Notes under the pieces: model-generated | Told to the model about the DNA's origin: nothing | What the model saw: only the letters and a program-made list of their open reading frames with translations | Databases searched by the model: none | Source of the DNA: a virus | Taxonomy: Duplodnaviria > Heunggongvirae > Uroviricota > Caudoviricetes | Reading direction: 5' to 3' (one strand) | DNA: 64,000 nt | IMG/VR virus record: IMGVR_UViG_3300020048_000033 | Location: 21,156 to 85,155 of that record | Program-made: the position numbers and the translations under genes | Part shown: positions 3,971 to 54,556 of the stretch, one piece after another | Numbering within the stretch: position 1 is the first letter of the stretch | Layout of the letters: the number at the start of each line of letters is the position of its first letter

Positions 3971-4363
3971 TTGGAGGTTGTTTTTTTGGAACCCTTATAT
4001 ACCCCTAAACAAAGAACCTCTGTCGTAGTGGCAGGGGGTAGGGATTTTATACCCAACAGAAATCACATGAATTGGTTAATATCTATTATACAAAGTTTAA
4101 ATGCTGATGAGATTGTATCAGGTGGTGCCAAAGGCGCAGACCACTTCGGGGAACTTATCTGTGAAAAACTAAACTTAAAGTTAATAGTTTTTAAAGCTTA
4201 TTGGGACAAGTATGGAAAAAGAGCAGGTCATCTTCGCAATGAACAAATGGCTCGATATGGAACTCATGTCATTCTCTTTGAGGGTGGCAGAGGAACAGAC
4301 AATATGAGAATGAATGCTCATAAATATAAATTACCATTGTATGAATATAAGGACTCAAAATAA
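3971..4363 (+). CDS. SLOG/DUF2493-like Rossmann-fold protein (LOG/DprA-like superfamily)
   Basis: VVAGGRDF ... SGGAKGADHFGE motif pattern typical of phage DUF2493 / SLOG proteins. Confidence 0.45.
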   Translation: MEVVFLEPLYTPKQRTSVVVAGGRDFIPNRNHMNWLISIIQSLNADEIVSGGAKGADHFGELICEKLNLKLIVFKAYWDKYGKRAGHLRNEQMARYGTHVILFEGGRGTDNMRMNAHKYKLPLYEYKDSK

Positions 4364-17104: not shown

Positions 17105-18490
17105 AACTAGTTCCACCTTAAAAGGTGGAATCTTCGTTTTTCGTTTCATCAAAACTGCTTTCAACTTTAGAAGATTCTAAAGCTAAAGAGGCAAGTTTCT
17201 CTACGGAGGCTTGTTCCAAGCACTCAGCTCTTTTAGTCGAGCCAAACAATTTCACATTCCTTGATGCATGAACATCCCGATCCTCGGTATATCCACAACT
17301 ACACTTATATGTCCTTTCACTTAACGGTATTGTATTCAACACTCCACAGCTTGGACAGTATTTCGTAGTTGGCATCCATTTACTGATTTTATAAGAACGA
17401 TCTGATTTCTCTAACTCAAGTAGCTTTGTTTTTACTCTTCCTAAATAGGAACTCTGAATAACTCTTGCAAACCCTTTGTTAGACTTCTTCCACTTTGACA
17501 ACTGCTCATCTTGAAAATATACTATATCATAGTCTTTCAGGAAATACGCAATCAGCTTGTTGGAATCATCTGTCTTCTTATTCGTTAAATGTTCGTACTC
17601 TTTCTTTATCTGTTTGAGACAATTATAGTATCGCTTTGACCCTTTTTCTTTCTTACTCAGCTTTCTTTGTAAGAACTTTAAATGGTCACTTTCTTGCACA
17701 CTACAATTGAATTTCTCTCCCTCAGATGTTGTTATGTTATCTTTAATTCCAAAGTCAAGTCCTACAGACTTACCTGTTTGTTCTCTCTTTTTAGAATCTT
17801 TTTCAATCATTATTGAAATGTTAATATATAATCCAGAAGCTTTTTTTATAAACTTGGCATTTGCTAATTCGTAGTTTGGATATTTCAGGAGCTGTTCCAG
17901 TCCGTACACTTTTAAATTTGCAAAGCCCGGTATTGTAATATGAGAGTTTCCACGAATTTTTAACCAAGGGCCAGTAATTATAGGAATACAATTAACTTCT
18001 TTTTTAAACTTAAGTCGTCCTACTTTGTTACCTTTCTTTTTAATTTTAGATAAAGTAACGATATCTTGTTTTTTTGATTGAACCAAAGCTCTGTGCATGA
18101 CAGAACTCAAAGTAATGTCTGAGATTACTTCATTTTTATCTTTATCGAAATGAGTTACTTTTTTATGTTCGAGATAATCATATTTGAAGATGTCAGTTGA
18201 ATTGAGCATATCATTTACAACCCACTTTGCTTGAGTGAAAGCGAAGTACATTTCAGATAATTTTTCTTTAGGGATTTGGTGAACATTGACTTTAAGTTCT
18301 AAGACTTTACAAGACTGATTTAGTCTACGGAGTTTAGTATTTTTAAGAGACTGTTTAATTTTATTGTTTGTATCTATTGATGACGGTCTCATATATTAAC
18401 TAACTCCTTATATTTAATTAGTTGTAGTTAATTAAAAGACTTATAGTTGGAAACTTCTTTATTCCACCTTAAAAGGATGGAATCTTACGA
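17105..18490 (-). mobile_element. IS200/IS605-family tnpB-only insertion element (IS1341-like)
   Basis: TnpB ORF is bracketed by near-identical subterminal hairpins in direct orientation (17109-17130 TTCCACCTTAAAAGGTGGAATC; 18462-18486 TTCCACCTTAAAAGGATGGAATC). No tnpA is present. Confidence 0.6.
17118..18392 (-). CDS. tnpB: TnpB (OrfB) RNA-guided endonuclease-like transposon protein
   Basis: C-terminal zinc finger CPSCG...CSCG followed by RuvC-III-like DRDVHASRNV. 424 aa. Confidence 0.75.
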   Translation of the reverse strand: MRPSSIDTNNKIKQSLKNTKLRRLNQSCKVLELKVNVHQIPKEKLSEMYFAFTQAKWVVNDMLNSTDIFKYDYLEHKKVTHFDKDKNEVISDITLSSVMHRALVQSKKQDIVTLSKIKKKGNKVGRLKFKKEVNCIPIITGPWLKIRGNSHITIPGFANLKVYGLEQLLKYPNYELANAKFIKKASGLYINISIMIEKDSKKREQTGKSVGLDFGIKDNITTSEGEKFNCSVQESDHLKFLQRKLSKKEKGSKRYYNCLKQIKKEYEHLTNKKTDDSNKLIAYFLKDYDIVYFQDEQLSKWKKSNKGFARVIQSSYLGRVKTKLLELEKSDRSYKISKWMPTTKYCPSCGVLNTIPLSERTYKCSCGYTEDRDVHASRNVKLFGSTKRAECLEQASVEKLASLALESSKVESSFDETKNEDSTF

Positions 18491-19453: not shown

Positions 19454-19740
19454 CGCAATCGGAAGAGGCACAAGACTCGGAAGATTCAGAAAAGGGTTGG
19501 ATATGAACCATAATAAAATATTCTAGTAGTGAAAGGGTTAGGTTACGCTTTTGCTAAAGTATATGTTATCCGTAGACATATGCGAATAACCTCCTTAGGC
19601 TAATACCTTTGGAAATTAAGGAACGGAAAAGCTTTTAGGTTTTAAATGTTTACCTACGTGTAAAGGTGAAAAACTGCCATTTTATTTCTTGTTGGGGTGG
19701 TACCCAACTTGAAGGATTTTGACAAGGGAAAGCGATTGGA

Positions 19741-19812
19741 TTTTCTATAAGCTCAGTGGATAGAGCTATGGTTTTTTAGCCGTGGTCGTTGGTTCGTGTC
19801 CAACTAGAAGAT
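19741..19812 (+). pseudogene. tRNA-like element with a degenerate anticodon arm (TTTTTT loop)
   Basis: Perfect D-arm GCTCAGTGGATAGAGC, T-arm GTTGG-TTCGTGT-CCAAC, acceptor TTTTCTA/TAGAAGA. No pairable anticodon stem. Confidence 0.3.
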
Positions 19813-20220
19813 TCCAGTGATGGTTTACAATTACCAATTGTGGCTATCTCCTTGTTATAAAGAACTTATTGCTAGGGTCAGGCTCCTCTATTGAGAGAGC
19901 GGAATAGTTGGTGTCGAAGCCAGCCTGACCAATAGAGGGGAAGTTCGAATGTCCCCTTGAATACGATATATTAAAGTATACGTTAATATATATTATCGAT
20001 ACCTATGAAGTTTTTTTGGAAAAACAGCGACTATAACGGTCGGAGACAGGGACGGTTCGATGCCCCCCTTAGGTAAAGGTTGATGACAAACCTTAAGTCA
20101 TTATAGAGAAATATTAAAAGGATGGATACAGATGAAACAGATCAAACGTATCCTCAAGAATACATAGCGGTTTTTAAGTCCGTGTATTTTTGAGGTAAAG
20201 CAAACACTTAAAAATATTAC

Positions 20221-20585: not shown

Positions 20586-20726
20586 TTCCCTCTTTTTTAG
20601 GGTGGATTGAAAGAAAATATAAGGAGAAAAGCTATGAGTAATTTTAAGTTTAGTATCCTCTCTAGTCTTGCTTAACTATTGAAGCTTGTACGTAGAGAGG
20701 TTAAAGAAAACCAATCAATAGTACAA

Positions 20727-22400: not shown

Positions 22401-22473
22401 GCTTTGATAGACTAGTGGTAAGTCTCCCATCTTTTTTGATGGGAAAACAGAGGTTCGATTCCTCTTTAAGGCT
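22401..22473 (+). ncRNA. tRNA-like gene with poly-U anticodon loop (stem CCCATC/GATGGG, loop TTTTTT)
   Basis: D-arm GACTAGTGGTAAGTC, T-arm AGAGG-TTCGATT-CCTCT, acceptor GCTTTGA/TTAAGGC (2 wobbles). Possibly a UUU anticodon in a 6- or 8-nt loop. Confidence 0.35.
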
Positions 22474-28767: not shown

Positions 28768-28839
28768 GCCCCTATGGTGAAGAGGTATCATTTCGGAATC
28801 TAAATCTGATAGTCGAAGGTTCGATTCCTTCTAGGGGCA
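28768..28839 (+). tRNA. suppressor-type tRNA, anticodon CUA (reads UAG amber)
   Basis: Acceptor GCCCCTA/TAGGGGC perfect, T-arm GAAGG-TTCGATT-CCTTC, anticodon stem TCGGA/TCTGA with 7-nt loop ATCTAAA (U33 and A37 present). Anticodon C-T-A at 28800-28802. Confidence 0.65.
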
Positions 28840-30563: not shown

Positions 30564-30800
30564 ATGAACTTTGTAGAAGCTTTAAAATTAGTAATGCAAG
30601 GAAAAAAAGTAATCTTGAAGAGCGTTCAGGATCAAGTAAATAAAATGGAGCTTAGAGGTCTATTATTTATTAGATTGTCTGACAATAAGGACTGCTTAGT
30701 TGCAGAATCTAAGCAAGGCTATATACAACCTTGGCCCTTTGAAGGTTGTACTAATCTTTTAAACTGGTATATAGCTGAAGATTGGATTGAAGTGGATTGA
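30564..30800 (+). CDS. hypothetical protein
   Basis: 78-aa ORF. Confidence 0.3.
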   Translation: MNFVEALKLVMQGKKVILKSVQDQVNKMELRGLLFIRLSDNKDCLVAESKQGYIQPWPFEGCTNLLNWYIAEDWIEVD

Positions 30801-30809
30801 AGTGGAGTG

Positions 30810-30843
30810 AAAGGTACCGTGGGTTCGAATCCCACCCGCTCCG
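30810..30843 (+). pseudogene. tRNA 3'-half fragment (T-arm GTGGG-TTCGAAT-CCCAC + acceptor strand CCGCTCC)
   Basis: Identical acceptor 3' strand to tRNA-Ser(UGA) at 29694. No 5' half is present. Confidence 0.35.
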
Positions 30844-38051: not shown

Positions 38052-38307
38052 TTTCTAATGGGGCTGAGGGGGTAATTCCTCAGCTCCTACTATTACGATT
38101 GCTTGGTGGAATTGGTAGACACACCCCTATTAACTGGGGAGGTAGAAACGTGAAACGTAAAGAACTAAAATTTCTTTGGAGTAATTGACCATAGGAGGTT
38201 TTAGGTGATAACTAAAAACAGTTTCAAATATTTTATTAAGAACTATAGATAACTTAATGGGTATTCCATTTGAGGGTTCGATACCTTCAGCAGTCATTTT
38301 TTGTTTT

Positions 38308-38388
38308 GGCGAGATGGTGTAATTGGTAGCCACGGGGGTCTTAAAAACCCCTCCTTTTAGGGTGGGGGTTCGAGTCCCCTTCTTGCCA
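38308..38388 (+). tRNA. tRNA-Leu (anticodon UAA), class II
   Basis: Acceptor GGCGAGA/TCTTGCC, D-arm GTGTAATTGGTAGCCAC, anticodon stem GGGGT/ACCCC with loop CTTAAAA, variable arm, T-arm GGGGG-TTCGAGT-CCCCT. Confidence 0.7.
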
Positions 38389-38507
38389 TGTTTAATACTT
38401 GGGGCTTTGCTGAAATTGGAAAACAGGTTTGGAGTTTTATCCAGATGGGTGGCACGACTTTCTTTGAATGTCAGTCCAGCTTTACGGTTTCAAATCCCGT
38501 AAGTTTC

Positions 38508-38554
38508 CAAGTATTAATCTTTTGGTCTTCCAGATTTTGGAAGTGGATTGAAAC
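38508..38554 (+). repeat. solitary variant CRISPR repeat unit (GGTCTTCCAGATTTTGGAAGTGGATTGAAAC) with AT-rich promoter-like lead-in
   Basis: Shares the 11-nt type I-C 5'-handle TGGATTGAAAC with the array repeat. The hairpin is replaced by CTTCCA/TGGAAG, preceded by GTATTAATCTTT. Confidence 0.55.
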
Positions 38555-38683
38555 GGCTGAATAAGTCCTGTCCTAATTCTAGGTCAAACCAGAAAAGGTC
38601 GCTATGAAATTAAATCCTAATGATTAGGTAATAGGTTTTTAACAAGTTAAAAGACTCTTAACTAATTTAAAAAGGATAATAAA

Positions 38684-39337: not shown

Positions 39338-39354
39338 ACAAGGAAAAGGTCGCT

Positions 39355-39582
39355 ATGAAATTAAAAGAATATTTGTCTGAGCTTAATGCTATGGTAGCAA
39401 ACGACTCTTCCATTCTTGAAATGGAAGTGGTAATGTCTAGTGATTCTGAGGGAAACTCTTTTCATAAAGTTGGATATACCCCAACTATAGGACATTTTTC
39501 CCGAGGGGATTTCCTCCCAAGTTCTCAATTTGAGGAAGAGGAAAGACCTATGACAGATGTTAATTCTATCTGCCTAAACTAA
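39355..39582 (+). CDS. hypothetical protein
   Basis: Start region AAAAGGTCGCTATGAAATTAAA is duplicated at 38586-38608, where a truncated MKLNPND* copy occurs. Confidence 0.3.
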   Translation: MKLKEYLSELNAMVANDSSILEMEVVMSSDSEGNSFHKVGYTPTIGHFSRGDFLPSSQFEEEERPMTDVNSICLN

Positions 39583-42646: not shown

Positions 42647-42853
42647 ATTGTGTACTCTCTTGATAAGAGTTTAAACTTTAAGTTTTAAAACCCTAAAGGG
42701 GTGTAACTAACATATAACTAGAACTTTTTGTCCCCTCCCTACTTTAGGGAGGGTTTTATTTTAAACTTATCTTTGAATATTAATTAAGGTGTTTCTTAGA
42801 AGGTAGCTAATTTATTTTCAATACAACATATATATTTTGTTAATATAGTATCT

Positions 42854-45283
42854 ATGAATTCTATTAAACCTACTTATTTATTTCCTGAGTTAGTGGCACA
42901 CCCTCCATCAAATGACAATCCTGTTAGTCAGTCTTTAGAAGAACACTTACAAGGGACTAATGAATATGCTTTATCCTTTTGTCAAAGTGAAACAGACAAG
43001 GCTTTAGTGTCTCCAATAGCTCTTGGACATGACATTGCAAAAACAACAACTTGGGTTAAAGAACATTTATGTCCTAGCTGTTGGTCTAAAAATAAAGACT
43101 TAAACCGATGTAAAGGGTGTGGATTAAAAAACCCTACTGGAAAGGATAGCCGACAAATATATCATTCACCTTATGGGGTTTTATATATGTTACTTAATTC
43201 TGTAACATCAGAGGGAAAAAAAATATTTGATATAAATCGTCTCAGAACGGAAGAGTGGGTATATTATAATATTGTGGGAGGACACCATGGAGGTTTAATG
43301 GATACTGACACTATTCAACAGAGAGTTCTTGAGATGATGTCAGATCCTAACACCCCAAATATTTTGAAAGAGATAGATTCTTTTGTAAAGTCTACAAATA
43401 TTTCTACTTCTCCAACAATTAAGTTTCCTTATAATAGGGATGATACCTTCTTTGATTTCTTTATAAAAATTAAAGAGGTATTTTCAATTCTTTGTGATGC
43501 TGACTCTTTAGATACTGAGGGACACAGTTCTCCTTCTAAAAAAGATTTTAGAAAACCCCCTAAAATTGAATGGACAAACCTTTTACAATGCTTAGATGAA
43601 TATTATTTAACTCTTTCTTTGGATGAAAACGGTAAACAAAAAAAGAGTAAGTGGAAACAAAAAAAACTTAATAAGCTTAGAAATGAATTAAGAGTGTATT
43701 CCGATAAAATTGCTTCTGCTTTTTCAAGAGGATATTTTTCAATGGAGTTTCCTACAGGGTTTGGTAAAACACTGGCAAGTATTTCTTTTGCTCTTAATCA
43801 TGCAATAAATATTGAAAAGAGAGGTGAAAGACCCATTAAAAGAATTATTTATGTCCTCCCCTTTTTGACAATAACTGCACAGACCACAAATGTACTTAAA
43901 GAGGTTTTTGGTGACGATATTAACATTTTAGAGCATCACACAGGGGCAGAATATGCTCTTAATGGTGATGATAGGAAATCTGAATATGAGCAAGCAACTT
44001 CTGATAAGGATAAAAGAAAAATACTGGCAACAGAGAATTGGGATTACCCTATAATTGTTACCACGGATGTTCAATTTTTTGAATCCGTTATGTCTGCTAA
44101 TAGAGGTTCTTCTCGTAAGATTCATAACATAGCTGATTCTATTGTTATCCTAGATGAAATACAAGTTATCTCTAACTCACTTTGGGCACCCACAATTGAA
44201 ATTCTTAAATCACTTAACAAAGTTTTAAATACTTCTATACTTTTTACTTCTGCTACTATGCCAGCATTTTCTTGGGAAAACCAGAAGTTAAAGTTTGATG
44301 GAGTTACCTCTTTAGTTGAAGATAAACAAACTCTTTATAGAAACAGCGTTCGAGTAAAATACCATGTACTTAACAATCTAAAGCCTCTTACCATTAATGA
44401 ATTAAGTACAAGGATTTTTAAGGAAAAGGGTTCCACTTTATTGGTGCTTAATACTAGGAGAACAGCTTTTGGGGCATATAGAGAACTGTGTAAGTTAAAC
44501 TCTAATAATAAATGGGATAAAATAATTTATTTAAATACCGTATTAAACTCTAAGCATCGTATGAACCTTATTAATTCTATTAAAAAAATACTGAAAGATG
44601 ATAAGTTAAAAATATTGGTTGTATCTACTCAACTGATTGAAGCCGGTGTAGATTTAGATTTTTATAATGTTTTTCGTAAAATAGCCCCATTAGAATCCCT
44701 TATTCAAAGCTCAGGAAGATGCAATAGAGAGTGGAAATATCCTTATGGGAATGTTTACATTTTTGATATTATTGATACTTTTAAGTGTGATCCTTGGTCA
44801 GACAGCTACATAGAGAGAATAGCAATAGTAGTTAATTTACTAAGAAGAACAAACTTTCTTAAATATTTTAGCCCCTTTGATTTAGGTAAATTACATAAGA
44901 GTGATATCTATGAGGAATATCATAAAAAATGCTTTTCTATTATGAGTTCTGATAAAAATAAGGTTCTAACTTCCATAAAAGCTTGCAACTTTAAAACAGC
45001 ATCTAATAATTATAAAATAATAGATTCTGAGACATCAGGGGTTGTAGTACCTTATGGAGACCTAACTTTAGATGAATATGAATATTATAGAAATAAAGAA
45101 ACAATCACAAGGGCAGACCTTAGACGACTTCAACCATATATGGTTTCTTTATTTGAGGGTGACTTAAAGAAGGTAGAAGGGATACAAATTGTAAGGACTG
45201 TAGGGAATTTATTAATGCTCAGTAAAAACCATTTGAATTGTTATAGTGAGGAAACAGGCTTATCTAATTTAATTTTTAATTAG
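42854..45283 (+). CDS. cas3: Cas3 (HD nuclease + SF2 helicase), type I
   Basis: N-terminal HD domain (HPPS...LEEHL...ALGHDIAKTT...GGHHGG), helicase motif I FPTGFGKT, motif II VILDEIQ, motif III TSATMP, C-terminal helicase lobe. 809 aa. Preceded by TTGTTAATATAGT. Confidence 0.85.
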   Translation: MNSIKPTYLFPELVAHPPSNDNPVSQSLEEHLQGTNEYALSFCQSETDKALVSPIALGHDIAKTTTWVKEHLCPSCWSKNKDLNRCKGCGLKNPTGKDSRQIYHSPYGVLYMLLNSVTSEGKKIFDINRLRTEEWVYYNIVGGHHGGLMDTDTIQQRVLEMMSDPNTPNILKEIDSFVKSTNISTSPTIKFPYNRDDTFFDFFIKIKEVFSILCDADSLDTEGHSSPSKKDFRKPPKIEWTNLLQCLDEYYLTLSLDENGKQKKSKWKQKKLNKLRNELRVYSDKIASAFSRGYFSMEFPTGFGKTLASISFALNHAINIEKRGERPIKRIIYVLPFLTITAQTTNVLKEVFGDDINILEHHTGAEYALNGDDRKSEYEQATSDKDKRKILATENWDYPIIVTTDVQFFESVMSANRGSSRKIHNIADSIVILDEIQVISNSLWAPTIEILKSLNKVLNTSILFTSATMPAFSWENQKLKFDGVTSLVEDKQTLYRNSVRVKYHVLNNLKPLTINELSTRIFKEKGSTLLVLNTRRTAFGAYRELCKLNSNNKWDKIIYLNTVLNSKHRMNLINSIKKILKDDKLKILVVSTQLIEAGVDLDFYNVFRKIAPLESLIQSSGRCNREWKYPYGNVYIFDIIDTFKCDPWSDSYIERIAIVVNLLRRTNFLKYFSPFDLGKLHKSDIYEEYHKKCFSIMSSDKNKVLTSIKACNFKTASNNYKIIDSETSGVVVPYGDLTLDEYEYYRNKETITRADLRRLQPYMVSLFEGDLKKVEGIQIVRTVGNLLMLSKNHLNCYSEETGLSNLIFN

Positions 45284-45335: not shown

Positions 45336-45382
45336 AAAAGTTTTGAACTTTTCCTGAATATCCTATATATTATATAGGTAGA
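45336..45382 (+). promoter_or_regulatory. class A promoter-like motif, copy 5 (between cas3 and cas5c)
   Basis: AAAAAGTTTTGAACTTTTCCTGAATATCCTATATATTATATAGG. Confidence 0.5.
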
Positions 45383-45481: not shown

Positions 45482-46156
45482 ATGAATGCAATATCCTCAA
45501 AATATGGTGCTCTTAAATCAAGGGTAGAGCTTGTGGCTTATGGAGAAAACGCTTGCTTTAAGGACCCAGTATGGAAAACAGAGGGTCTTACCTACCCATG
45601 TATCACCCCATCGGCTTCAAGAGCTATACTAGAGTCGGTGTTTTGGCATCCTCCGATGTATTATGATATTGTGTCAATAGAGGTTTTAAAGCCTATAATA
45701 AAAACACTGACCTGTGTAGTTGAACCCAATACCTATGGTATAGACGGAGTTTTGAGACACTATATGTATCTAAGAGATGTATCCTATCATATTGTTGCTG
45801 ATATAGTTATGAAGAATGGTGTCACAATAGATGAAAATAAAAATGCAATAAAGTATATGAGTATTTTTAATAGGAGACTACAGAAAGGTCAAACTTTTAA
45901 GGCTCCTTTCCTCGGAATAAGTCAATGCTTATGTGATGTTAGGGAATATGTTCCTCTTGAGGATATCCCTACAAAAGAAAATTATTATATAGGAAATATG
46001 CTATTAGAGATGAATCATAAAAAATCTGGGGTAGAGCCAATATTTATGGATGAGGCTCAAATAAAAAATGGCGTACTTTGTAATGGGGAACAGTCCCTTG
46101 AAGACGCCATACTAGAAAAAACATCTTATAGAAAAGAGGAAGTGTATATTGCGTGA
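45482..46156 (+). CDS. cas5c: Cas5c (Cas5d) crRNA-processing subunit, type I-C
   Basis: Family-conserved blocks VELVAYGENACFKDP, ASRAILESVFWHP, HYMYLRDVSYHIVADI, FKAPFLGISQC align with Cas5d. Confidence 0.8.
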   Translation: MNAISSKYGALKSRVELVAYGENACFKDPVWKTEGLTYPCITPSASRAILESVFWHPPMYYDIVSIEVLKPIIKTLTCVVEPNTYGIDGVLRHYMYLRDVSYHIVADIVMKNGVTIDENKNAIKYMSIFNRRLQKGQTFKAPFLGISQCLCDVREYVPLEDIPTKENYYIGNMLLEMNHKKSGVEPIFMDEAQIKNGVLCNGEQSLEDAILEKTSYRKEEVYIA

Positions 46157-48128
46157 ACTTTATGATTTTTACAAGGTGTATTCCACTACTGAAACTTTCA
46201 AGGAAAATTACGACAGTAGTATTTGGTTTGATAGAGGTACGCCCTCAGCAATTATTGATATTGATAAGAACCATAAGACTACCTTCCTACCACTTGGAGG
46301 AGACTCAGCTAAACTTCATCGTAGAGAATTCTTCCCGGGGAAAGGTACAAGATTTTCATTAGATGCTACTAAAAGGGTTTTAGGTGGTATTGAGGTTAAT
46401 GACAAGGACGGTTCTTTTACTTTTGAAGAAAACTTTGGGTCGGAAGTTTTATCTCAGGTAACAGCTATATTAAAGTATAAAAATTATTTCTTAGATAATC
46501 TTTCTCTTTTTACAAAAAAAGAAGTTTTAGTAGCACAGGAAATTTTTGATGCAATACTTTCAATATATGTAAGTCCTAAGTGTAAAGATTTTTCTGATAT
46601 TAAGGTTTCAAAAACCTTAAAGAAACTAAGAAAAGATTTCTGCACCCATTTTAAGGATGATAAAAATGTTGAAGGTAAACTTATAGGTATCTCTTATCAA
46701 GGAGAGCTAATTCTTGAAAATAAAGTAATTTCCAAGATTGTAGAGAGTTTTAAAGAGTATGAGTTGGGTCTTATAAATAAGAAAACTCCTTTTAGAAATT
46801 GTCCCATTTGTAAAAAAAACACAAACCTTTATAATATTAATTCCTATGGGGCTATAAGAAAAAGTTTACTAGGTGGAAGTATTAATGGGTGTTTTCCCAT
46901 TAGTTACAATGAACCACAATTTGAGTCTTATGGAATGAAAGGTAACTTAAACTCATCAATTTGTTATGATTGTGGAAAAAAAATTGTAAGGTCTTTAGAA
47001 ATACTTTGTGGGATAGACAAAATATATGTCCCCTTCAAGAACTCTAAAGGTGAAGACAAGTTAAAGCCCTCATTTAAGGAGACTCGTTTCAGATTGGATG
47101 TCCGTGGCGCAAATGAATATGCTATTCTGGTATATGCGACAGATGCTAATGGGAGAGTCTTGGATATGACTAAAGAAATATCCTTAGATACTGTTAGAGA
47201 AGTTGATTTGAAATTAGATGAGTCCTCTATTATTTCTTCCTATAAAAGTTTAAATGATAGTAGTTCTTCCAGTGAAGCAATAATCCCACTTAATATTACA
47301 GCCAATATTCTTGTGGTAGCATCAAATAGTGCAAGAATGGTAATAAGAGATCATTGTTGTATTAATCTTAATAGCTTAAGGAGTTCCATTTCTCGTTGGA
47401 GGGAAGCTACCCAAGGACAAACCTTTGAGGGATATGTTGATGCTAAAGGAAACCAAAAATGGAGGGCTATAAAATATTATCCTTCACTTAATACTATCTT
47501 AGAAAACTTAGGTGCTTTTGGTAAAAATGATAAAGTTTATTATTCTGTAATAGATACAGTTCAACAAATGGTGTTTCGTGGAATAACTGAAAATATTTCT
47601 TTTAAGGATACAATACTTAATAACATTCAATCCTCTTTCTTTACAAGAGGGGATAGACAGTATGAAATATCTAAGGATTCATTCTGTGTTGTACGTTTGG
47701 TTTATAATGCGGGTAAGAATAAGGAGAGTTTGATGAGTCCGAGTCTTGATGAGACTAATGAAAAAATGGGGTATCTTTTTGGGAGAGCTTTTTCTATAGC
47801 ATCTTCTATTATGTATCATGTAAATGATAAAGATACTTATGGTATTGATTCTCTTTATGATCAATGTTTGTCACAACCTAAATTGGCTATAGAAAACATA
47901 ACCAGTTCTTTAATGTATTATGTATCTAAGGGTAAAAAAGACCCTGATATAGGATTTTTTATTGTATCCCTTCACAATAAGTATATGGAACTTATTTCTA
48001 AAGCATTGCAGGTGGGAGTTCCTATCATAATGAAACAGGACGATAAACTACTTTTTATTGGTGGAATGTGTTCACAAAATATGTATAATAAAACTGGTGG
48101 AAAAACCACTAAAGTAAAGGAAGACTAA
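46149..48128 (+). CDS. cas8c: Cas8c (Csd1) large subunit, type I-C
   Basis: 659-aa ORF overlapping the cas5c stop by 8 nt, in the position and with the size expected for Cas8c. Internal CxxC...CxxC zinc-finger-like pairs. Confidence 0.65.
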   Translation: MRELYDFYKVYSTTETFKENYDSSIWFDRGTPSAIIDIDKNHKTTFLPLGGDSAKLHRREFFPGKGTRFSLDATKRVLGGIEVNDKDGSFTFEENFGSEVLSQVTAILKYKNYFLDNLSLFTKKEVLVAQEIFDAILSIYVSPKCKDFSDIKVSKTLKKLRKDFCTHFKDDKNVEGKLIGISYQGELILENKVISKIVESFKEYELGLINKKTPFRNCPICKKNTNLYNINSYGAIRKSLLGGSINGCFPISYNEPQFESYGMKGNLNSSICYDCGKKIVRSLEILCGIDKIYVPFKNSKGEDKLKPSFKETRFRLDVRGANEYAILVYATDANGRVLDMTKEISLDTVREVDLKLDESSIISSYKSLNDSSSSSEAIIPLNITANILVVASNSARMVIRDHCCINLNSLRSSISRWREATQGQTFEGYVDAKGNQKWRAIKYYPSLNTILENLGAFGKNDKVYYSVIDTVQQMVFRGITENISFKDTILNNIQSSFFTRGDRQYEISKDSFCVVRLVYNAGKNKESLMSPSLDETNEKMGYLFGRAFSIASSIMYHVNDKDTYGIDSLYDQCLSQPKLAIENITSSLMYYVSKGKKDPDIGFFIVSLHNKYMELISKALQVGVPIIMKQDDKLLFIGGMCSQNMYNKTGGKTTKVKED

Positions 48129-48129
48129 A

Positions 48130-49191
48130 ATGGCAAAAGCAAAAGCAAAAGAACCTGAACAGGAAGTTGAAATACTTAAAGATGAAGAGTTTTTCGCCAC
48201 CAATGGAGAACTTGTAAACAACCGGTATGATATTATGATTTTAGTGGAAGCTATTAACTCAAATCCAAGTGGTGACCCCGGTAATGGAGGGAAACCTCGT
48301 ATAGACCATAACGGTCGTGGAGAATGGGAGAATACTTCTTTAATTTATAAAATAAAGACAAGGATAGAAATCCTTGCAGAACAGAAAGGTTGGAAAGGTT
48401 TTAATCGCCTTGTAAAAAAAGGTAGTATTATTTCTGAGGGTTTGAAGCAATTCTCAAAATATGGCTCAGATATAAATCTTCAACAGCGCAAAGTGGTAGA
48501 TACCTTTTTTGATATAAGGATGTTCGGAGGTATGCTCAGAACAAAGGATGGAAAATCTTCTACTCCAGAGGACAAAACTTCCGAAATTAAAAAAGAAGAT
48601 TCTGGTAAAAAAACTGTAGAAAAGGGTGGACAGGGTTGCGGTACCTTAACTGGTTCAATCCATTTCTGCAAAGGTGTTTCTATTGATCCAGTGATTGTAA
48701 AAACTACCCGTATTACTCGGGTATGTGCTTCAAATCCTGAAAGGCTAAGAGGAATCAGAAAAGAGGATTATACTGAGATGGGTGAAAACTCTGTAGTTCA
48801 TTATGGTCTTTATCAATTTAAGGGTAGTATCGATCCTATTCAGTCCCAAAAAAGCTTTTTTACTAAAAAAGATTGCAAAATCTTTTTTAGAAGTTGTGCC
48901 TCTTTTACAAAGCACGATGCAAGTTCTATTAGAGGGGAGCTTAATATTCGTAGAGTTATTATCTGGAAACATGATAGTATCTTAGGTAGTACTCCTAAAA
49001 ATCAGAACTTTAATAGACTTAAAATTGCCCTCAAGGATGGAATTGATTCTCCTGAAAAGTATGAGGACTATAATATAGCTCTCGATCTTGAGAACCTTAG
49101 CCCCCATCTTAGTGTCATTGATATCAATGATAAAGAGATTGCGGAAGCTTGGGATGATGAAACTCTTGACTTTGATAAAAACTTTATGTAA
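48130..49191 (+). CDS. cas7c: Cas7c (Csd2) backbone subunit, type I-C
   Basis: NRYDIMILVEAINSNPSGDPGNGGKPRIDH matches the Cas7/Csd2 N-terminal glycine-rich signature. 353 aa. Confidence 0.85.
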   Translation: MAKAKAKEPEQEVEILKDEEFFATNGELVNNRYDIMILVEAINSNPSGDPGNGGKPRIDHNGRGEWENTSLIYKIKTRIEILAEQKGWKGFNRLVKKGSIISEGLKQFSKYGSDINLQQRKVVDTFFDIRMFGGMLRTKDGKSSTPEDKTSEIKKEDSGKKTVEKGGQGCGTLTGSIHFCKGVSIDPVIVKTTRITRVCASNPERLRGIRKEDYTEMGENSVVHYGLYQFKGSIDPIQSQKSFFTKKDCKIFFRSCASFTKHDASSIRGELNIRRVIIWKHDSILGSTPKNQNFNRLKIALKDGIDSPEKYEDYNIALDLENLSPHLSVIDINDKEIAEAWDDETLDFDKNFM

Positions 49192-49203: not shown

Positions 49204-49256
49204 ATTGGAGTTATTTTTATTAAGTGCGAACCTACTGTTACCAGAAAATCCCTTGG
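49204..49256 (+). promoter_or_regulatory. leader-region stem-loop (GTGCGAACC...GGTTCGCAC) between cas7c and the array
   Basis: 9-bp inverted repeat. A second GAGGTTCGCACTAAG copy lies 70 nt downstream. Could be the cas-operon terminator/attenuator or a leader structure. Confidence 0.3.
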
Positions 49257-49367
49257 AGGTTCGCACTCCTTGCCCTGTATAGACTTAGGTGATTTTATAT
49301 TAAAAAACTTGGTTACAAACTATCATAATTCTGAGGTTCGCACTAAGTATAGGGTAAGTCTATATCA

Positions 49368-49389
49368 TGTAAGGGTTTATATATTAGTA
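49368..49389 (+). promoter_or_regulatory. array promoter-like element (AAGGGTTTATATATTAGTA) abutting repeat 1
   Basis: Same GGTT(A/T)ATATA..TTAGTA motif that precedes every variant-repeat unit. Confidence 0.4.
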
Positions 49390-50956
49390 GTCACTCCCCG
49401 TGCGGGGGTGTGGATTGAAACTTTTGAGGTAGCACTGACAGAACCAATTAGAGATGTCACTCCCCGTGCGGGGGTGTGGATTGAAACCTTGCTAATACAT
49501 TCAACTTTTCAACATCAAGTGTGTCACTCCCCGTGCGGGGGTGTGGATTGAAACAAGCTGTCCAACTTTGCCCTCATCCTTTGTTGGTCGTCACTCCCCG
49601 TGCGGGGGTGTGGATTGAAACTTGGGTGGTATTGGTTCAGCAATCGGCGCTTTGTGTCACTCCCCGTGCGGGGTGTGGATTGAAACTAAAAAGAAATGGA
49701 AAACCCGTTGACACCACAGAGTCACTCCCCGTGCGGGGGTGTGGATTGAAACTTTCAGGAACAAGACCCACAAGGTACGATTGGAAAAGTCACTCCCCGT
49801 GCGGGGGTGTGGATTGAAACTAACTCTCACCTTTTTTCAGCCGGTTTCACAATTGGTCACTCCCCGTGCGGGGTGTGGATTGAAACTCATACAGTGTTGC
49901 TCTGGTTGCACCTCTACACACAGTCACTCCCCGTGCGGGGGTGTGGATTGAAACAAGGAACTGAAAAATGACTTTCGAGATTTGAGGGCGTCACTCCCCG
50001 TGCGGGGGTGTGGATTGAAACCTTGGGGCAAAGTATTTCCCTTGTAGCGATTGAAAGTCACTCCCCGTGCGGGGGTGTGGATTGAAACGTGTATCACTCG
50101 AAAGTACAACATGGTTGTGTAAGTCACTCCCCGTGCGGGGGTGTGGATTGAAACTGAAATGGGTGGACTCGGGGAAATACTCACTAAAGTCACTCCCCGT
50201 GCGGGGGTGTGGATTGAAACGAGTAAGTAGCAGGACAGGGGTTTTCTTTTGTGTAAGTCACTCCCCGTGCGGGGGGTGTGGATTGAAACGAGTTTGACAC
50301 CGACCTAGTTACCCTTGAACTCACGTCACTCCCCGTGCGGGGGTGTGGATTGAAACAACTCGAATCCCCGTTTGTATTTGGATTTTAGCAAGTCACTCCC
50401 CGTGCGGGAGTGTGGATTGAAACTACTCAGTTGATGGACTCTATTGGCAAGGTACTCGTCACTCCCCGTGCGGGAGTGTGAGAGCTGAGTAATAAAACTA
50501 AGTGTTAATATAATATTAGTACTGGTCTTCCTAATTTTGGAAGTGGATTGAAACCCTTTAAGTTCCCCATGCATCATACAAATAAACATGTCACTCCCCG
50601 TGCGGGGGTGTGGATTGAAACCACTACAAAGACGGGCGAGTCAGACAGAATCCGGTGTCACTCCCCGTGCGGGGGTGTGGATTGAAACTAAGTAGTTATT
50701 GGATTCCGCTTAGAATCATTAATGTCACTCTCCGTGCGGGAGTGTGGATTGAAACCGAATATCAGGTATGGATATCATCGAGGCATTAGTGTCACTCCCC
50801 GTGCGGGGGTGGGGATTGAAACCAAGCCGTTGTTCAAGCTTTGCAGGATTCCAAGGTGTCACTCCCCGTGCGGGAGGTGTGGATTGAAACATGACTGGTT
50901 TAGCTGTAATTAATGGGTCGAAGAGTCACTCCCCGTGCGGGAGTGTGGATTGAAAT
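49390..50956 (+). CRISPR. type I-C CRISPR array, 23 repeats (GTCACTCCCCGTGCGGGGGTGTGGATTGAAAC, 31-33 nt) and 22 spacers of 33-36 nt; repeat 17 (50448-50554) interrupted by a 73-bp promoter + variant-repeat insertion
   Basis: Repeat starts at 49390, 49456, 49523, 49590, 49656, 49721, 49789, 49856, 49923, 49990, 50057, 50123, 50189, 50257, 50325, 50392, 50448 (split), 50590, 50657, 50724, 50791, 50858, 50925. Terminal ATTGAAAC is typical of I-C repeats. Distal repeats accumulate variants (GGGAGTG, CTCCG, TGGGG, terminal GAAAT). Confidence 0.9.
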
Positions 50957-50992
50957 GTAATATCAGAGGATAGTCTGTAATATTTTCTTAAT

Positions 50993-51020
50993 CACCACAA
51001 TCCTCTTGGGATTGTGGTGA
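50993..51020 (+). terminator. perfect 10-bp stem-loop (CACCACAATC-ctcttgg-GATTGTGGTG) after the last array repeat
   Basis: Inverted repeat seen directly in the sequence. No strong T-tract follows. Confidence 0.3.
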
Positions 51021-51054
51021 AGATGTGTAAGTGAAATTAAAATTAGGGTTAATA

Positions 51055-51420
51055 TAATATCAGTATTGGTCTTCTAGAAATTAGAAGTGGATTGAAACAG
51101 TACACAAGTCTACAAGAGTCTATTCTTCATTGTCACTTCCCGTGCGGAAGTGTGGAATTAAAATTAGTATTAATATAATATTAGTACTGGTCTTCCAGAA
51201 TTTGGAAGTGGATTGAAACGAGGCAAATACTCAACTTATATCTGGGACTGTGCGTCACTCCCAGTGGTGGAGTGTGGATTGAAACGATGCCATGGTCAAC
51301 AAAATGGATTTAGACCTGAGTCACTCCCCCCGTGAGGGAGTGTGGATTTTAATACGATATAATGAATCAGATAGGGTGCTAATGATAAGTCACTCCCGTG
51401 CGGGAGTGACGTTAATCAAA
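51055..51420 (+). CRISPR. two degenerate mini-arrays, each starting with a promoter-like element and a variant repeat, followed by spacers and decayed canonical repeats
   Basis: Unit A: promoter TTAGGGTTAATATAATATCAGTA, variant repeat at 51078-51108, spacer, degenerate repeat GTCACTTCCCGTGCGGAAGTGTGGAATTAAAAT at 51142-51174. Unit B: promoter TTAGTATTAATATAATATTAGTA, variant repeat at 51189-51219, then degenerate repeats at 51254, 51320 and 51389. Confidence 0.65.
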
Positions 51421-53097: not shown

Positions 53098-53373
53098 ATG
53101 CTTGAGTTTTTAAAAAAGAAAAAGAAAATTATACCTGTGAGAAGTGGAGCCTATTGTAGATGTAGTATATGCACTCATGTAGGATATGCGTATGGCATTG
53201 CTTCAAGTGAAGTAGGGGTGAGTCATCCAAGTTGCGCTGTATGTGGATTTAACATGGGACTTGTTCAAATTCAACCCTTTCAAGAGTGTACATGCAAATC
53301 CTGCAAGTTGAAAAAGAAACTTAGGGTTAATATAAGTATCTGTCTTCCAGAAATTGGAAGTGGATTGAAATGA
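53098..53373 (+). CDS. hypothetical Cys-rich protein (3' end runs into a solitary repeat unit; boundary uncertain)
   Basis: Multiple CxxC pairs. The ORF stop lies inside the variant repeat at 53343-53371. Confidence 0.2.
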   Translation: MLEFLKKKKKIIPVRSGAYCRCSICTHVGYAYGIASSEVGVSHPSCAVCGFNMGLVQIQPFQECTCKSCKLKKKLRVNISICLPEIGSGLK

Positions 53374-53476
53374 TAGAGCAAGAAGAACTTGGGCAGAAGA
53401 ATTAATGAACAAGGATATTGTGGTTGCACATTATTAATGAACGTGAGTCACTCCTGTGCGGGAGTGAGGGTTGAAA
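53322..53476 (+). repeat. solitary mini-array: promoter-like TTAGGGTTAATATAAGTATCT + variant repeat (53343-53371) + 74-nt spacer-like segment + degenerate canonical repeat (53446-53476, GTCACTCCTGTGCGGGAGTGAGGGTTGAAAT)
   Basis: Direct sequence match to the array repeat 5'-handle and hairpin. Confidence 0.55.
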
Positions 53477-53588
53477 TAGCACAGCGACTGGACAGTAAAG
53501 AAACTGGACCGGCACAAACCAATCTGATGCTCCTTACAAAAAATGTAACCGTCTGTCCCGAGTATGTTAGATTAAAAGGAATTACCGT

Positions 53589-54309: not shown

Positions 54310-54508
54310 ATTAATGGGGATGACGTAGGGTTCGATCTTAAGTGAAGTAACAGGATGCAAATGCACTAGAAAAAACGTCTTGAGTAGCTTAAGAGACTCG
54401 GGGGCAGTTCCCGACATCTCCAAATAGGGTATGATGAAAATTGTCAGATAAAAACTGATGTGGTAAACATGGAACGCAAAACGTGCTCCGTCATTAATAA
54501 TAAAACTT

Positions 54509-54556
54509 AAGGTAATATTAGTACGGGTCTTCCAAAAATTGGAAGTGGATTGAAAT
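54509..54556 (+). repeat. solitary variant CRISPR repeat unit with promoter-like lead-in (TAAGGTAATATTAGTA + GGTCTTCCAAAAATTGGAAGTGGATTGAAAT)
   Basis: Same hairpin/handle architecture as the variant repeats in the mini-arrays. No downstream repeat. Confidence 0.5.

Follow-up and report, generated by a model that had tools for sequence, protein, structure and literature searches.

CRISPR systems carried by phages usually come without adaptation genes (PMC7162821), and for type I-C both the form of the repeat and its processing have been described: Cas5c cuts at the 3' base of the repeat stem and leaves an 11-nucleotide (nt) handle, and its recognition centres on the stem base, on U22-G23-G24 and on the overhang at the 3' side, with neither the loop nor the 5' overhang playing that part (PMC8524198). 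Smaller units of similar build are known from viruses, as mini-arrays and as solitary units that include the RNA anti-CRISPRs (Racr), which inhibit CRISPR-Cas through aberrant Cas subcomplexes (Camara-Wilpert et al. 2023, PMC10651486), and, among crRNA-like regulatory RNAs, as CreR and CreA of bacteria and archaea and the viral Cracr arrays, whose divergent psi-repeats keep handle and hairpin (Shmakov et al. 2023, PMC10120712; bioRxiv 10.1101/2023.03.10.532045; bioRxiv 10.1101/2024.10.29.618823), and transcription starts inside arrays have been reported from Sulfolobales (PMC10883916). Here we describe a 64,000-nt piece of a large phage-like genome (positions 21,156 to 85,155 of IMG/VR record IMGVR_UViG_3300020048_000033; hereafter the window) with a type I-C array of 32-nt repeats on the + strand, 3' of cas7, from 49390 to 50956. 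We find that a module of ~50 nt, made of a promoter-like box and a 30-nt variant repeat that we call psiR, recurs inside the array region and elsewhere in the window, and we lean towards reading the locus as a chain of tandem and dispersed, promoter-driven CRISPR RNA (crRNA) units processed by Cas5c, with psiR as the starter repeat.

A recurrent module of promoter-like box and variant repeat

The canonical repeats are ~32 nt long and fit type I-C: seven base pairs form the stem around a loop of 5 nt, and the 3' tail of 11 nt has GGAUUGAAAC at its end. The module joins a box of the form TG/GG-TTAATATA to a second kind of repeat: psiR reads GTCTTCC-loop-GGAAGTGGATTGAAAC/T, with its own GTC start, a hairpin GTCTTCC-loop-GGAAG and the handle TGGATTGAAAC. 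Six copies stand in the window (M1 to M6, Table 1), all on the + strand and with a mean column identity of 91%; the handle is invariant at 10 of its 11 positions, its last base being C or T, the hairpin-forming positions are intact in all six, and loop and flanks vary. The psiR core GAAGTGGATTGAAA has exact matches at these six sites only, and a search allowing up to two mismatches gives 28 matches against the ~1.4 expected by chance. Just 3' of tRNA-Asn, at 20588-20613, a small hairpin, CCCTCTTTTTTAGGG, runs straight into TGGATTGAAAG, which shares 10 of its 11 bases with the handle. This may be a very degenerate seventh unit of the psiR kind or mere coincidence; by our estimate ~1-2 such handle matches are expected by chance.

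An earlier note on this DNA had seen an AT-rich box, a different hairpin and the conserved handle after the hairpin part of the seventeenth canonical repeat (R17), and all three are borne out, M1 having its box, the hairpin CTTCC-TAATTTT-GGAAG and then an intact TGGATTGAAAC. It is also right that the same module heads two mini-arrays: a repeat search (family D4) gives 78-87% identity among the 69-nt stretches of M1, M2 and M3. The anatomy around R17 has to be redrawn. Its first part had been placed at 50448-50470 and lies 10 nt higher, at 50458-50480 (R17 starts at 50458, and its hairpin part, 50458-50478, is kept together with TG, the handle having decayed); this shift inflated a supposed insertion to 73 bp, the true interval from the 21-nt hairpin part to the 11-nt handle being 65 bp, or 63 bp if TG is counted with the hairpin. 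Nor is R17 a repeat split in two by an insertion, since the sequence right after its hairpin (TGAGTAATAAAACT) aligns at 16 of 22 positions with the decayed handle before the M3 box (TGTGGAATTAAAATT), so that R17 is best read as the terminal repeat of the first unit, and since psiR, three of whose six copies lie far from canonical repeats, is a complete repeat in its own right. The duplicated element is a junction, running from terminal repeat through promoter to starter repeat.

Three modules outside the array, M4, M5 and M6, had been overlooked, and with them come competing interpretations in which crRNA-like RNAs act as regulators or decoys. M4 overlaps the 3' end of open reading frame (ORF) 53098-53373, M5 sits intergenically ahead of ORF 54659, and M6 lies ~135 nt 3' of tRNA-Leu (38307-38389). 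Just 3' of M6, at 38592-38615, is a duplicate of AGAAAAGGTCGCTATGAAATTAAA, the ribosome-binding site and start of ORF 39355 (39342-39365); the duplicate opens a 7-codon ORF only.

The array region itself comprises four units, A to D. In unit B the last repeat, R23, ends in GAAAT and is followed by a 36-nt spacer-like stretch (50957-50992), and the repeats of unit D are increasingly degenerate, at 51254-51285, at 51320-51353 and then, as a hairpin alone, at 51389-51410. Spacers following psiR measure 33-35 nt, normal lengths for type I-C, and those of unit A have a mean guanine-plus-cytosine (GC) fraction of 0.42 against 0.35 for window and phage, as expected of acquired foreign DNA. A Logan contig from SRR7760394 (L001) holds the same phage region with identical mini-arrays and flanks; there, comparison of its positions 4043-4110 with window 49390-50723 shows repeat 1 joined straight to spacer 19, so that 18 spacers (S1-S18) and M1 are absent, and the contig reflects either repeats collapsed in assembly or a true variant whose array is shorter.

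The box recurs far beyond the modules. We count 20 copies of TTAATATA on the + strand, which bears nearly all genes, and 6 on the - strand, and TG precedes 14 of the 20. It stands 13-14 nt ahead of the ATG of cas3 (box 42840), ORF 15763 (box 15749) and the helicase gene 34280 (box 34267), and at greater distance it is also present 5' of tRNA genes and of two further ORFs, 51463 and 54091. The cas3 box, TTGTTAATATAGTAT, occupies 42837-42851, with the ATG ~8 nt past TTAATAT. No Shine-Dalgarno sequence lies between the box and the start codons of cas3, ORF 15763 and the helicase gene, and the box-ATG spacing suggests that these three mRNAs may be leaderless. Relatives found through the helicase gene (55-57% protein identity, DNA of 50-55% GC) keep a TTAATATAA box 13-16 nt before the helicase ATG at three loci in two relatives (L034 9985, L035 1614, L036 9988), and no type I-C handle occurs within 10 kb on either side in L034-L037. 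Five of the six modules have the box intact, in a form matching the consensus found before genes. The strand bias, the preceding TG, the spacing before genes and the conservation in relatives lend indirect support to the box being a phage promoter of the class that would also drive cas3, and with the spacing seen at genes, transcripts of M1-M3 would start ~6 nt before psiR. A generic sigma-70 scan shows mild enrichment and, among the in-array modules, calls M2 alone (GTGAAA-16-TATAAT). A second promoter-like class of ~55 nt is represented by six near-identical copies of AAAAGTTTTGAACTTTTCCTGAAaATCCTATATATTATATA (TTGAAC-17-TATATT), one of them, at 45340, just 5' of cas5c and distinct from the TTAATATA box.

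The hairpins keep a strict register. Those of psiR have 5-7 bp and -4 to -6.5 kcal/mol, compared with -9 to -14 kcal/mol for canonical repeats, and in all psiR copies, as in those canonical repeats that have the A-variant (R16-type) register, exactly 11 nt separate the closing of the stem from the end of the repeat, in agreement with the published recognition by Cas5c; the 11-nt handle that the earlier note called the invariant element is confirmed in this sense. When psiR and canonical stems are aligned, both bases have changed in four of six pairs, with the closing C-G pair, the handle and the register kept, and this difference could equally mark the import of repeats from another type I-C lineage: Blautia and Acetatifactor array repeats have the same outer stem, CTTCC/GGAAG, and the same ending, GAAAT, as psiR. 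Selection on a hairpin beside a fixed handle is common to all type I-C repeats, so the point is not novel in itself.

A hairpin after unit B had been taken for a terminator at 50993-51020. The hairpin is real (50993-51019, 13 bp, z = -4.7) and unique; its reading as a terminator is not supported, as it has no U-tract and no call in a terminator scan. It starts exactly 36 nt past R23, where the next repeat would be, and so may act as the 3' hairpin or end of the last guide. What the scan scores as terminator-like is the degenerate repeat 51322-51342 plus TGGATTTTAA, where the handle has turned into UGGAUUUUAA.

Table 1. Features of the type I-C locus, the dispersed modules and comparable units
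Feature	Position	Strand	Description
cas3 (HD and helicase)	42854..45283	+	Pfam Cas3-like_C_2, DEAD, Cas3_HD
cas5c, presumed pre-crRNA endonuclease	45482..46156	+	Pfam Cas_Cas5d
cas8c (Csd1)	46149..48128	+	Pfam Cas_Csd1
cas7 (Csd2)	48130..49191	+	Pfam Cas_Cas7
Leader box GGGTTTATATATTAGTA	49373..49389	+	like the module boxes; abuts repeat 1 directly; presumed promoter of unit A
Unit A	49390..50480	+	R1-R16 (GTCACTCCCCGTGCGGGGGTGTGGATTGAAAC), 16 spacers of 34-36 nt; ends in R17 hairpin part
M1	50486..50554	+	decayed handle 50486-50498; box TTAATATAATATTAGTA 50505-50521; psiR 50525-50554; handle 50544-50554
Unit B	50555..51019	+	spacers S17-S22, repeats R18-R23, spacer-like stretch, 13-bp hairpin
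Unit C	51030..51163	+	M2, 33-nt spacer (51099-51131), degenerate repeat GTCACTTCCCGTGCGGAAGTGTGGAATTAAAA (51132-51163)
M2	51030-51098	+	box 51049-51065; psiR 51069-51098; heads one-spacer mini-array
Unit D	51151..51410	+	M3 and three spacers: 51220-51253, 51286-51319, 51354-51388
M3	51151-51219	+	box 51170-51186; psiR 51190-51219; heads three-spacer mini-array
M4, outside array (53.3 kb)	53321..53477	+	box TTAGGGTTAATATA 53321-53334; psiR 53342-53371 ending GAAAT
M5, solitary, outside array (54.5 kb)	54507..54556	+	box TTAAGGTAATATTAGTA; psiR 54527-54556 ending GAAAT
M6, solitary psiR GTCTTCCAGATTTTGGAAGTGGATTGAAAC, outside array (38.5 kb)	38525..38554	+	no intact box
AAAAGTTTTGAACTTTTCCTGAAaATCCTATATATTATATA element copies	6270, 19412, 36825, 45340, 56234, 58580	+	
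Solitary bacterial units directly 5' of cas3	L004 4145-4174; L024 66-93		
Solitary bacterial units between cas3 and cas5c	L007 5874-5901; L009 4206-4235		
Further solitary bacterial units	L013 5890-5916; L021; L028; L029		

Proposed guide units and rival readings

On the reading that we give slightly better than an even chance, the guide-RNA side of this phage-encoded type I-C interference would consist of small transcription units in a chain, not of a single leader-driven array. Every unit would open with a copy of the phage TG/GG-TTAATATA promoter, and psiR would follow ~6 nt past the predicted start site, retaining the GTC start, a short AT-rich hairpin closed by C-G and the exact 11-nt tail UGGAUUGAAAC. 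Cleavage by Cas5c at the 3' base of the psiR hairpin would yield the 5' handle of the unit's first guide, and the 3' hairpins of the guides would come from canonical repeats downstream; the psiR hairpin would never be part of a mature crRNA and would need only to stay cleavable, so that its sequence would be free and its handle invariant. Unit A, with 16 spacers and uniform repeats, would close with a repeat whose handle has decayed, to be followed in tandem by B (6-7 guides), C (one) and D (three), and M4 to M6 would be copies at other genomic sites, solitary or with a single guide. Bacterial type I-C loci use short-hairpin psiR units with promoters of their own, which makes such variant repeats a natural class of type I-C substrate. 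That the locus forms multiple independently transcribed crRNA units had been proposed in the earlier note, and it remains the most economical account of a box that is recurrent, strand-biased and placed before cas3 and other genes, although the units are predicted from sequence.

Several points weigh against this reading. The sequence shows the anatomy, the recurrence of the module, the register of the hairpins and a box that recurs and is conserved ahead of genes, whereas it is only predicted that transcripts begin at the boxes, that Cas5c cuts psiR and that the products load into the phage Cascade. In alignment the phage Cas5c conserves the Lys and has Phe and Tyr at two other active-site positions, where the Cas5 chain of the solved type I-C Cascade 8g9t deviates too; these two positions are those of the catalytic Tyr and His in the Cas5c of Bacillus halodurans and Streptococcus mutans. 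In M4 the stretch between psiR and the degenerate canonical repeat at 53447-53477 is 75 nt long, an odd length for a spacer, and no recognizable repeat lies downstream of M5 or M6, so that these two may yield no normal crRNAs; nor does the sequence downstream of either hold a significant fold or a terminator. The stem covariation described in the earlier note is thinner than it seemed: every variant listed there exists, but only two changes are two-sided and compensatory, one per family (C-G to U-A in M2 and C-G to U-A in the 51132 repeat), all others being one-sided, G-U/A-U, and column shuffles give no significance (85/500 for psiR, 410/500 for canonical repeats). A rough estimate of the chance that a substitution hits the partner position with the right base gives ~0.01 in the case of M2 and ~0.07 in that of the 51132 repeat, which is suggestive only.

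The searches for targets and relatives also count on this side. Array-region spacers (49390-51420) have no match in a GenBank phage collection of 50,697 records, and IMG/VR holds none for the guide that comes first in unit B, C or D, negatives that are bounded by the content of these databases. Searches of IMG/VR with Cas7, the DUF5662 protein and the exact canonical and variant repeats, of metagenomes and genomes with the psiR pattern and of 5.8 billion proteins with Cas7 return, as carrier of the locus, the same phage only (as L001); with no relative carrying it in the collections searched, covariation and conservation cannot be compared across genomes. One candidate, MT836291 (H1), proved to be an unrelated, ordinary type I-C array.

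Among the alternatives the one that survives best, which we consider possible though rather unlikely, holds that some or all of the psiR units, above all M4 to M6, are not immunity guides but crRNA-like regulatory or decoy RNAs comparable to CreR/CreA, Cracr or Racr; they would either bring a Cascade (that of the phage or of a host type I-C system) to promoters with a partial match, which would be repressed and not cut, or serve as a sponge for the Cas proteins of a host type I-C system. Scans of genomes and metagenomes with the psiR pattern return ordinary Lachnospiraceae type I-C arrays together with solitary units on Lachnospiraceae and Christensenella contigs, each made of a promoter, a short-hairpin psi-repeat (GTCTTC...GAAGTGGATTGAAA), ~25 nt and a terminator hairpin. 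We regard these as probable type I-C CreR-like regulators by analogy with the Cas-regulating CreR RNAs known from other subtypes (bioRxiv 10.1101/2023.03.10.532045; PMC10120712), and their shared build and, for L004, L024, L007 and L009, their position beside cas3 in type I-C loci speak for a regulatory role in the phage, as do the fit of M5 to viral solitary repeat units immediately 3' of a promoter (PMC10651486), the existence of viral crRNA-like RNAs that include type I-C and stacked arrays (bioRxiv 10.1101/2024.10.29.618823) and the identity of the psiR outer stem and ending with Blautia and Acetatifactor repeats. The expected targets do not appear: psiR-driven spacers have no PAM (protospacer-adjacent motif)-proximal match of at least 10 nt anywhere in the window and no TTC-flanked match beyond chance in the promoter regions of cas3, cas5c, the leader and ORF 51463, and contiguous PAM-proximal matches of 9 nt elsewhere in the window lack a TTC PAM and occur at chance frequency. 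More widely, every spacer compared with the window, full-length, seed-anchored and PAM-anchored at cas and leader promoters, gives chance-level matches only, that of the first unit D spacer to 52738 (21/34) lying within the null range. Moreover, M1 to M3 lead into spacers of normal length and the phage's own repeats, a decoy would hit the phage's own system too because the cognate effector is encoded here, and no spacer of the Lachnospiraceae arrays that we fetched matches the window.

Somewhat less probable, in our judgment, is that the modules are evolutionary debris, produced by recombination at the common handle and tandem duplication of the junction, the distal mini-arrays being decaying trailer ends. 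Repeat degeneration does grow toward 51410, the box is lost in M6, the M4 spacer is aberrant, and M1, M2 and M3 have in common a left flank that derives from a decayed handle, which shows junction duplication. Decay of this kind would not be expected to spare handle and hairpin positions in all six copies while loop and flanks vary, nor to leave the sole stem substitution, in M2, compensated and the gene-type box intact in all copies except one, and with 13-22% divergence the copies are too old for a lack of time to account for their intact state.

We think it improbable that the dispersed units are hard-wired 'guide genes', each a promoter, a starter repeat and a fixed guide, which with the phage Cascade would act during infection as a programmable regulator of host or phage transcription and not serve immunity, unit A being the sole adaptive part; some of the units would then, with the same low probability, lie in the 5' regions of ordinary phage genes. 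It could also be that Cas5c, in cutting psiR, determines where downstream mRNAs begin, M4 standing before the DUF5662 gene and M5 before ORF 54659. Very improbable is a metagenome misjoin through repeats as the cause of M1's position in the array, for although L001 shows that assemblers treat the array inconsistently, M1 is a separate genomic copy by its divergence from M2 and M3, its junctions are unique, with only 21-23 nt (left) and 11-12 nt (right) common to other repeats, which we judge to be shorter than the read length, and the path taken in L001 would be expected if identical 32-nt repeats had collapsed.

If the chain of promoter-driven crRNA units is real, a virus would have rebuilt guide expression as compact cassettes of promoter, starter repeat and guide that can be placed anywhere and timed by its own promoter classes, and a short AT-rich hairpin with an 11-nt handle would suffice upstream of a type I-C guide, a natural design rule. 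It would also illustrate directly, in one genome that holds the effector as well, how arrays grade into mini-arrays and these into solitary RNAs of the crRNA-like kind. Should the dispersed units turn out to be regulators that are hard-wired, the matter would be more interesting still, and the solitary units beside cas3 in gut Lachnospiraceae are flagged here as probable type I-C CreR-like elements.

Effector genes and the remainder of the window

The type I-C signature set of cas8c, cas5c, cas7 and cas3 is present (Pfam PF09709, PF09704, PF05107, PF22590/PF18019). A homologue search among 5.8 billion proteins finds the closest relative of Cas7 to be only 27% identical, and Cas5c is a full-length homologue of the Cas5 chain in 8g9t (E = 3e-22). 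No Cas1, Cas2 or Cas4 domain occurs among the ORFs scanned between 38.7 and 54 kb. Directly after cas7, at 49223-49267, stands an 11-bp inverted repeat (AGTGCGAACCT ... AGGTTCGCACT), and a second direct copy of AGGTTCGCACT lies 67 nt further on, at 49334-49344, in the array leader; the inverted repeat could be a terminator or a protein-binding site.

The window has a GC content of 35% and carries 28 tRNA genes, one of them with a CTA anticodon, and Rfam at gathering thresholds finds tRNAs only. It also codes for homing endonucleases, an RtcB-like protein and helicases, and its Cas7 and helicase proteins are recorded on a contig of 163,769 bp. The tRNA with the CTA anticodon, an amber suppressor, is accompanied by two tRNA-like genes with odd anticodon loops (28768-28839, 19740-19816, 22401-22473); under code 11 only 14 ORFs of at least 230 amino acids are found in the 64 kb, and TAG recoding of some window genes is possible. 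Similar to the crRNA handle is a tandem stretch, GATTGGATTGAAGTGGATTGAAGTGGAGTGAAAGG (30775-30812), that stands directly 5' of a tRNA-like T-arm, GGTTCGAATCC, where ARAGORN calls no gene. One of the very few minus-strand genes, 17118-18392, encodes a transposase-like protein (phrog_506, E = 5e-38), which suggests an insertion element within the phage genome.

Relation to described systems

Huge-phage type I-C systems without adaptation genes (Al-Shayeb et al. 2020, PMC7162821) are close to this locus in having cas3-cas5c-cas8c-cas7 with no cas1, cas2 or cas4 adjoining, repeats of 32 nt whose stem has 7 bp and whose 11-nt tail reads ...UGGAUUGAAAC, spacers of 33-36 nt and many tRNA genes. The array here is longer, 23 repeats plus the mini-arrays against a median of six reported for phages, and unlike those systems it is split into units headed by a putative promoter and a second repeat type, beside a Cas7 that is only 27% identical to its nearest relative.

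With viral mini-arrays and solitary units such as Racr, the locus shares repeat-like units immediately 3' of a promoter, here a predicted one, followed by one to three spacers or by none, and degenerate distal repeats. Those elements lie in viruses without cas genes and mimic the host's repeat, whereas a cognate type I-C effector is encoded here, and three of the modules stand in series with a bona fide array, unlike viral mini-arrays; M5 resembles a viral solitary unit in form, M6 has no intact box, and M1 to M4 continue into spacers and repeats. Virus-borne mini-arrays of inter-viral conflict carry one or two spacers matching related viruses, and here, within what these databases contain, no match was found in the phage records or in IMG/VR for the first guides of units B, C and D.

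The CreR, CreA and Cracr elements are alike in combining divergent psi-repeats with a promoter of their own, here a predicted one, and in sometimes being stacked in small arrays. Their defining feature, a partial psi-spacer match (at least 9 PAM-proximal bp, PAM-flanked) to a cas or toxin promoter, was sought in the window and not found, and the phage psiR units differ from these elements also in leading mostly into full-length spacers and canonical repeats.

The internal or cryptic array promoters of Sulfolobales resemble the modules in that transcription would, as predicted here, start inside an array. Those are chance products of AT-rich spacers and are kept suppressed, whereas the phage has a defined cassette of predicted promoter and repeat in six uses, and a layout with promoter-headed units beyond the array is, set against these systems, unusual and not unprecedented.

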